From a virus (Duplodnaviria > Heunggongvirae > Uroviricota > Caudoviricetes), in the IMG/VR virus record IMGVR_UViG_2534682078_000009: a stretch of DNA of 10,083 nt. One strand, given 5' to 3'. Position numbers: made by a program. Below, piece after piece: positions 1 through 3,000 of the stretch; position 1 is the first letter of the stretch, and every line of letters begins with the position of its first letter.

Positions 1-3000
1 CGGTAGTTTTCCTCTGTAGGTTATCAACACATCCTGCGCCTCTAAATGATGGGCCGCTTTTCCGGCAACGGACCATCCCCTTCACATAACCCGGCAGCAA
101 CATCCATGAAAAACTGCTTCGCCTGCTTTTTCGCCTCAGCTTCGTAAAACTCCAGCGTGGCACCTTCAGTACGGTCAAGACTAATCGCCACATCTGGCAA
201 CAACAGTGACGGATACCCACCAATTTCCAGTGCCACAGTAACAGTAATCTTATCCGGGTAATTATTTATCCCTTTAACAACCAGTTCGTATTTTTTCTTC
301 ATCGCTTTACTCTCCCCGCGCCGCCTTACGCTTATCTTCTTTAATCTTGAAATAAAGATTTGTCAGATACGTCAGCAGGCCAAACAGCAGACTTACCCAG
401 CACACCTATTGCCACCCACTGGGACGAGAGCTTTGTCCAGCAGCTGCAGTAACCAGTATCCCGTCCCCACCGCTGACGTGGTGTATGACACACCTGTTGT
501 GATTTTTTCCATCTGATGTATGTCTCCGTCACCGCCGACAGAAAATGAAAGTAAAGAAAAACAAAAAAGCCGCCAGTGTCACCCACTGACGGCCAACGCC
601 GGGAGCCGTGATTATGGCATTCAGGCTCTGCTAAAAATGCCAGATAACATTCCGGCCTCCCCTGATTCAGGTTATAAATGACACAATATCTTGACAACAT
701 CCGTCACTGTCTGTCAGAAAATGTACTGCCATATAGAAGCAACATGTGAAGTACATCTATCCTTTTGAGCCAGCACCTCTCCACCGAAAGTCAGTGCTGG
801 CTGTTTTTTTCCTTAATAAGGCATCTGTAACTGAAACAATCCGCATATTGATAATATATTGACAGGCATCATTGCTGTCTGTGAAAAATAAGTCTCTACA
901 AACATATAAGGCCTTTTAGCCAGCGTCTTCTTTTTCAGGTCAGTCGCTGGCTTTTTTTATTATGCTGCCGGTGCATTTATCTCCAGCATCAGACTTTCTA
1001 TCTCAACGCCATACGCTGCATTTTTTGTAACATCCGTCAGCGTCAGCGCATTCAGTCCCAGTGTCAGACTGTCTTTTATAACCTGGAATGCCGGGCCAGC
1101 CACTCCATTCAGTTTCGGAGTAACCGTGGCACTGCCGGCGGTGAACACCAGCTCCAGCGTCTGCCAGTCGTTACCGTAATCGCCGAACTCCCCCAGCTTC
1201 GTGTTTCCGGCTTTCCTGTGATGCATCAGATTCACTCTGCCGTCAGTGGTCTGAGTGAAGTACGACATCAGGAACGGATTACCGGTACCCGTCATCGCCA
1301 CACCATCAGGAACGGGAGCATCCGTATACAGATAAATCCCCAGCCCGAACTGATTGTTGGTCAGTGCGCCTGACAGGCGGAACTTACAGGTCTGTCTGCC
1401 GCCCTGTGTCAGCAGGGTAATTGCGTCATCCACCGGATGCGTCAGGGACCAGGTTTTATTGCTCTGCTTGGTGATCTTAAATACACCATCTGACAACTGA
1501 ATTCCGCCATCCTTAATGCTCCAGCCCTGCGCAGCAGCCTCTCCGGCTGCCGGCAGCAGGGAGATTGTGCGAACGGACGTATCTGCAGACGGACCCGATG
1601 GCGTGTTGCCGCCGGGCGAGGGTTTGATTTCCGGTGCCTTACCACTGATGAAGGCTGAGGTGCGCCCGGCTGCGTTCAGAATAGCGGTTGCCAGACGATC
1701 CGGAATAATGCTCCTGCGCGCCCATGAACTGAAATGTGTCGGGCGGTTTGATGATACCTGGTTTCCATTCGTTCTCGATGCCGCACCGTAATATCCTGAT
1801 GCCGGAATATCCGGATCTTCTGCCGGCGCGTTAGTGGCGGTATTGACGCCGTTACCGTCTGTCATGAAGGGCACAAAATAAACGCCCTCACTCTCCCTGT
1901 TTTTATACCCGCCGTACACGGTGTCGTACTGGGTAGCGTATGTATTTTTCCAGTAATACGTCGTGTCACCACAAACCCACGGCACATCTGCAGCACTGCC
2001 ACCATGGCACTGCGCGTTAAACACGGAGAGGTCAGCACGAAACTGTGTCAGCATGGCTGTAAACAGCGCAGGTTGCTGTACGTGGGTGGCGGCGCTCATG
2101 TCAAACTCACCCTGCATCCAGCAGACGGCCAGCAGAACGTTTTTGGGATTTTTCTGCAATGCCGCTTTTGTGCGGGAAATCAGATCCTGATATAACGGCT
2201 TGCCCACCCCCCAGCGTGCCGAATCCTGACTGGCCCCCGTGGACTCGCTGAATGTCCCCTCCGCGCCCTGGGTAAATGCCGAACCACCACGACAGCATGG
2301 TACCAGCAGGATCCCCGCGTTATTCGGGATATACGGGAGCAGTTTTTTGGCAATATGTAAACCCTGGCCGACACAGCCGTACTGCCCTTTGCTCAGGTCA
2401 GCCCTCGGATGATTCAGCGTACTCATATCCTGCACATCATGCAGACAGTGGTCAGCCGGAATAATATCGTTATATCTGCAGGCAGCCCCGCCCGGCGTCA
2501 CTGTACTGCGGCGCGCCAGCTGTTTAATGCGCGGATCCGGAGCATCGTATGAATCCGGCAGCGGAAGCCCTTCACCGTAAGCCATGGCATTGGATTGCCC
2601 GGCCAGTACGATGACGTAGTACCAATCCGGCTCAGATGAAGGGCCGACCTGTGGCTCTCCTTCAATAGCCACCGCCTGCATCAGTGTGTACGGCGTAATG
2701 GCAACCGGTCCGCCGTATGGCTGCCAGCCCTCTTTCAGTTTGTGTGTCAGCTTTTCCGCAAGGTCTGACGGCGACGCCGCCCTGACAACATCGTAATGTT
2801 TAATCGACATCGAATTTCTCCCGTGTAGAGGAACAGAGTTAAAAAGCCGGAAGCGGAATCAAATCACAGGATGACCATCTGCCAGTGGCAGGTCATAAAA
2901 AAAAGGCTGCGCAATGCGCAGCCAGAACTCACAAGGAAAATGATAAAAGGAATAACACTAGTGATGTACGCATGGCGCCTCCCGCTAAGTTCTGCAATGA

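Follow-up and report, generated by a model that had tools for sequence, protein, structure and literature searches.

The window analysed here (10,083 bp) is the entire contig AFDS01000012.1 of the 2011 draft assembly GCA_000225065.2 of Escherichia coli 2534-86, a porcine enterotoxigenic E. coli (ETEC) strain (PMC4358887). No paper on the assembly of 2534-86 or on its sequencing platform was found in a literature search. The contig represents a part of a lambdoid prophage and includes the nin region and the genes coding for the lipid A deacylase LpxR, antiterminator Q, a 616-aa esterase, a holin and YdfR. It terminates in multi-copy DNA on either side, with IS1203 on the right and the lysis cassette of a prophage on the left. 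The features relevant for this work are the following:

42-302, minus strand: ydfR (DUF1327), 86 aa instead of 114, with a 1-base loss in a T4 run
307-512, minus strand: class II (phage 21 S-type) holin gene, 206 nt, lying in three frames (207 nt and 68 aa in intact relatives)
520-681, plus strand: 53-aa ORF
960-2810, minus strand: SASA-family carbohydrate esterase, 616 aa (DUF1737/SASA/DUF6645), a late gene upstream of the holin
3353-4111, minus strand: 252-aa ORF for a multi-pass membrane protein
4281-4970, minus strand: antiterminator Q, a 229-aa gene call (PF06323)
5447-6406, plus strand: LpxR-family lipid A deacylase gene, 319 aa (PF09982)
9728-10083, minus strand: 3' part of an IS1203 element (IS3 family), cut off by the contig end, with A5 shortened to A4 at about 9915-9918

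The location of the Q gene suggests that the holin belongs to a lambdoid late operon, with Q and the esterase encoded upstream of it. The esterase protein is identical in O111-type genomes. The contig ends inside ydfR, leaving the endolysin gene off the contig; in relatives, the lysozyme gene is located either next to the holin or after ydfR.

Three further genes deserve a comment. lpxR is a cargo gene in the opposite orientation, flanked by the Q gene and a truncated antitermination gene fragment which adjoins ninH. The 252-aa ORF, with gene calls of 238-247 aa and a match to the Pfam family PF27470 (TfpB), sits in the late operon between a small DUF3927 gene and Q. The 53-aa ORF is antisense to the esterase-holin intergenic region; it has a gene call in 451 blocks of the public collection and no Pfam match, and is probably spurious.

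The first-pass annotation described the gene at 307-512 as a phage 21-type holin split over three reading frames, and frame reading has reproduced this structure together with its strand, its length of 206 nt and the stop codon at 307-309. Frame 0 starts with the ATG at position 512 and stops after 39 aa; the middle part of the protein is found in a second frame and the C-terminal part in a third one, terminated by the TAA at 307-309. Of the 68 residues in the intact homologue, 65 are encoded by one or another of the three frames, and the remaining three, the loop residues VSP, by none. The family assignment holds too. Taken alone, the N-terminal fragment scores 32.7 bits and the C-terminal one 40.3 bits against PF04971 (Bacteriophage P21 holin S), both above the Pfam gathering cut-off (26 bits) and far beyond chance; they match profile positions 1-26 and 40-63, compared to positions 1-63 of 64 and 112.1 bits for an intact relative. 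Near-identical genes are named "class II holin family protein" in RefSeq, which agrees with this, as does the annotation of the H-19B S gene. A single continuous ORF of about 68-71 codons with both membrane segments, absent from the window, is present in all 34 other loci that were fetched. As far as its sequence can tell, the gene is a normal class II holin of phage 21 type, probably from the late operon for lysis in a defective lambdoid prophage.

The window allele does not have a dual-start motif, as ATA and not ATG is found 9 nt upstream of the start codon; a genuine ATG occupies this position in the 71-aa EL361 allele. In loci L019, L020, and L024-L030, 71-aa holin calls begin at an ATA 9 nt upstream (equivalent to window positions 513-521). 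These calls seem to reflect an artefact of gene calling rather than a true dual start.

The nearest relative of the window is the ybhC-adjacent prophage remnant of O111-type strains, which matches positions 319-9725 at an identity of at least 99.9%. When 9,407 nt were aligned with strain E2855, the only differences were three indels in the holin gene and one allele-switch base at position 322. To the left of position 322 the window follows another lysis cassette, composed of a holin tail and ydfR, and the best relatives of positions 1-330 match throughout except for a single gap (T4 to T3 in ydfR). The identical esterase was found at nine non-redundant places, and in all nine the holin is intact and has lysozyme or IS1203 behind it; ydfR comes next in none of them. 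The gene order in relatives (L029, L032, L004 and L005) is holin, then lysozyme, then integrase and ybhC, while the nin region abuts a portal-gene fragment; in 11128 an IS3-family copy is also located between these two. To judge from this organisation, the prophage in all close relatives is a rearranged or inverted, IS1203-bearing and defective remnant.

A comparison of positions 520-9725 with E2855 (L005) and O111:H- 11128 (L004) has revealed zero substitutions over about 9.2 kb, the strains compared being a porcine ETEC and bovine or human O111-type ones. Either the ybhC-adjacent remnant has come to be shared very recently, or its evolution is very slow.

Base-level alignment to four intact alleles, supported by full-length comparison to the nearest relative, resolves the damage to the holin gene into three single-base events, two deletions and one insertion, at two sites:

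425-431, minus strand: lesion 1, a net loss of two bases, intact GTCTCTCCG becoming G-CTCTC-G
395, minus strand: lesion 2, an extra T, intact CTGGGAAGT becoming CTGGGTAAGT

At lesion 1, a T is lost between positions 431 and 430, and one C of a CC pair is lost at 426|425; this site is invariant in 34 of the 34 other loci. The T gained at position 395 creates the TAA which terminates the 39-aa ORF of frame 0, and its immediate neighbour is the sole position of that stretch with A in one E2855 allele and G in the other. Two of the three indels are not in homopolymers: the lost T follows AAAG and the gained one is placed between GGG and AAG. The frame switches had been correctly mapped to about 430 and 394 in the first-pass annotation, and correctly said to lack a long homopolymer, but their nature was different from the two single-base insertions proposed there. 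Alignment to intact holin genes, expected to confirm two extra bases, has shown a lost T, a lost C and a gained T instead. The locus had also been counted as 68 codons plus 2 nt; intact relatives have 207 nt, that is 68 codons and a stop codon, and the length of the window gene is 206 = 207-2+1. The earlier frame arithmetic still came out, since a shift of -2 and one of +1 lead to the same reading frame.

A search for the same lesions in other sequences was negative. The 76-nt stretch covering both sites has no match of at least 99% identity in 5,426 complete E. coli genomes, and neither of the two lesion-bearing patterns occurs in GTDB species representatives, IMG/VR or JGI metagenomes, collections which contain few draft isolates, so that sister strains with the same lesions could be missed. 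None of the 34 other fetched loci has a lesion at either site; all of them are intact and continuous, which leaves no homologue with the three-frame structure that the first-pass annotation had considered. The exact 39-aa, 32-aa, and 119-aa products are absent from the protein collection, which is uninformative, as the holin fragments have no gene call even in their own contig.

Two other genes of the contig contain private indels. In ydfR, the T run is now T3 (positions 44-46, with the gap placed by the aligner at 47). The IS1203 fragment aligns to IS1203 copies with no mismatches and one gap, the resulting A4 run frameshifting the transposase. The contig-private differences therefore amount to five single-base indels (three in the holin, one in ydfR and one in IS1203) and no substitutions.

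Seven other "86-aa YdfR" entries could be taken for independent truncations of this gene. They were rejected as such, because they are genes left incomplete where a contig stops: in seven unrelated draft E. coli assemblies (L007-L013) a contig breaks inside the same ydfR T run (window positions 43-45), and their partial proteins are exactly equal to the truncated product of the window by coincidence of the break point. This recurrent break indicates a repeat boundary, common to many strains, where assemblers break.

The five indels are not scattered over the contig. All of them are located within 430 nt of a contig end (P about 4.5e-6 under uniform placement), three events fall within 37 nt (P about 4.6e-5), and about 9.2 kb of the contig interior is flawless. 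Within one E. coli genome, the holin region occupies 2 places in the median and as many as 15. The holin lesions are confined further by the following segment, which contains all three of them:

323-443, minus strand: 121-nt identity segment of two holin alleles (ybhC-prophage and EL361-type), with allele-specific bases at 444 and 322

The EL361-type allele is the one with ydfR next to it. Since the two alleles are identical here only between positions 443 and 323, the switch between the prophage types must occur in this interval. In two complete genomes, which match positions 150-393 at 100%, the 3' half of the holin is naturally joined to ydfR, so the contig need not be chimeric. These two matches cannot be regarded as the same mosaic, as they differ in their holin allele (71 aa) and in the region upstream.

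The lesions are present in the deposited sequence. In our opinion they are most probably consensus errors of the draft assembly in a gene that is ordinarily intact, and we infer that the living strain lacks them. The differences are unique to one assembly (with few drafts searchable), consist of indels only, affect three unrelated genes, and are concentrated in repeats at both contig ends while the interior is clean, all of which points to residual consensus error. Where contig ends lie in multi-copy DNA, their sequence may rest on a small number of reads or on a mixture of them. The holin lies in the brief interval over which the contig changes from sequence specific to the ybhC-adjacent prophage to that typical of the holin-ydfR cassette of another prophage, and a join between copies must fall within the 121-nt identity segment. 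Of the two possibilities left by the first-pass annotation, a pseudogene or assembly errors, we thus favour the latter, the two further single-base indels in neighbouring repeat genes being one more reason.

The opposite possibility, a strain-private holin pseudogene in a cryptic prophage resulting from complex local mutation, perhaps during recombination between two resident prophages, seems unlikely to us and has to include genuine frameshifts in ydfR and in one IS1203 copy. It agrees with the degraded state of the prophage in all relatives, where lysis genes are dispensable or counter-selected, and cryptic prophages do gather real lysis gene lesions; the lesions also fall where a mosaic junction must have its crossover, the 3' side of that junction occurring naturally elsewhere, and two of the three holin indels are unlike typical homopolymer miscalls. 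However, neutral decay would bring substitutions, which exceed indels roughly ten to one among spontaneous changes in E. coli mutation accumulation, and here five 1-base indels stand without a single substitution in about 9.8 kb of otherwise identical sequence. Selection is no better an explanation, because one frameshift is sufficient to inactivate the holin; it accounts neither for three hits nor for those in ydfR and the transposase. Confinement of all five indels to contig ends and repeats, and the absence of the lesions from every other genome searched, also speak against it, and neither inheritance by related genomes nor a normal mutation spectrum was seen. A narrower form of this explanation, in which the three indels are a real frameshift cluster left by error-prone repair synthesis at the crossover of two resident lambdoid prophages and incidentally killing the holin of the recombinant, we regard as quite improbable.

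Two more explanations have very little probability. Reads of two diverged holin alleles could have been merged into a mixed consensus with indels at polymorphic columns, and the T at position 395 does adjoin the sole A/G difference of the two E2855 alleles there; but a mixture of A and G yields no T, and the stretch around lesion 1 is invariant in every allele examined, so that merging fails as the cause of both sites. We find it highly improbable; besides, it is a sub-variant of the artefact explanation and not a separate biological one. Programmed recoding, with two ribosomal frameshifts expressing the holin and regulating lysis timing, would make use of the fact that the three frames together restore nearly the whole protein. 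Yet this architecture is found in no homologue, as the 34 fetched loci and every match in complete E. coli genomes contain a single ORF. At the first switch frame 0 has no stop codon and no known slippery motif, a +1 slip at GGG-UAA would lead into a frame other than that of the C-terminus, and the VSP residues would still be encoded nowhere. With neither conservation nor a workable slip path, programmed frameshifting is excluded in practice.

If the lesions are draft errors, as we believe, the three-frame holin has no biological weight. Apparent multi-frameshift pseudogenes located within a few hundred bases of the end of a draft contig, in prophage or IS repeats, should not be counted as gene decay. 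Were the lesions real, their effect would be small: the element appears to be a non-inducible remnant already in all close relatives, so loss of the holin would not be expected to change phage release. For the same reason the lysis-defective prophage suggested in the first-pass annotation would matter little even with real lesions.

One of the closest known systems is the intact holin WP_000411800.1 of the ybhC-adjacent prophage remnant in the O111 strains 11128 and E2855. The window DNA is identical to theirs over 9.4 kb, holin included, bar the three indels. In these strains the holin gene is unbroken, and the gene behind it is lysozyme, either whole or disrupted by IS1203, whereas in the window it is split and followed by ydfR. 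With indel errors at contig ends or in collapsed repeats of draft genomes the window shares restriction to one assembly, the indel-only character, location at both ends and multi-copy DNA, and two of its five indels fall into A5 or T4 runs; the difference is that two holin indels are outside homopolymers and so do not represent the commonest type of pyrosequencing error.

The holin S of phage 21 (S21) shares the family profile PF04971 (Phage_holin_2_1) with both window fragments, and the window gene probably sits in a late operon downstream of Q. The S gene of H-19B, annotated as similar to phage 21 S, has 94% DNA identity to the window gene. S21 uses a 71/68 dual start. The phage 21 S type is a single ORF, while the copy deposited in the window is spread over three frames and has ATA in place of the upstream ATG.
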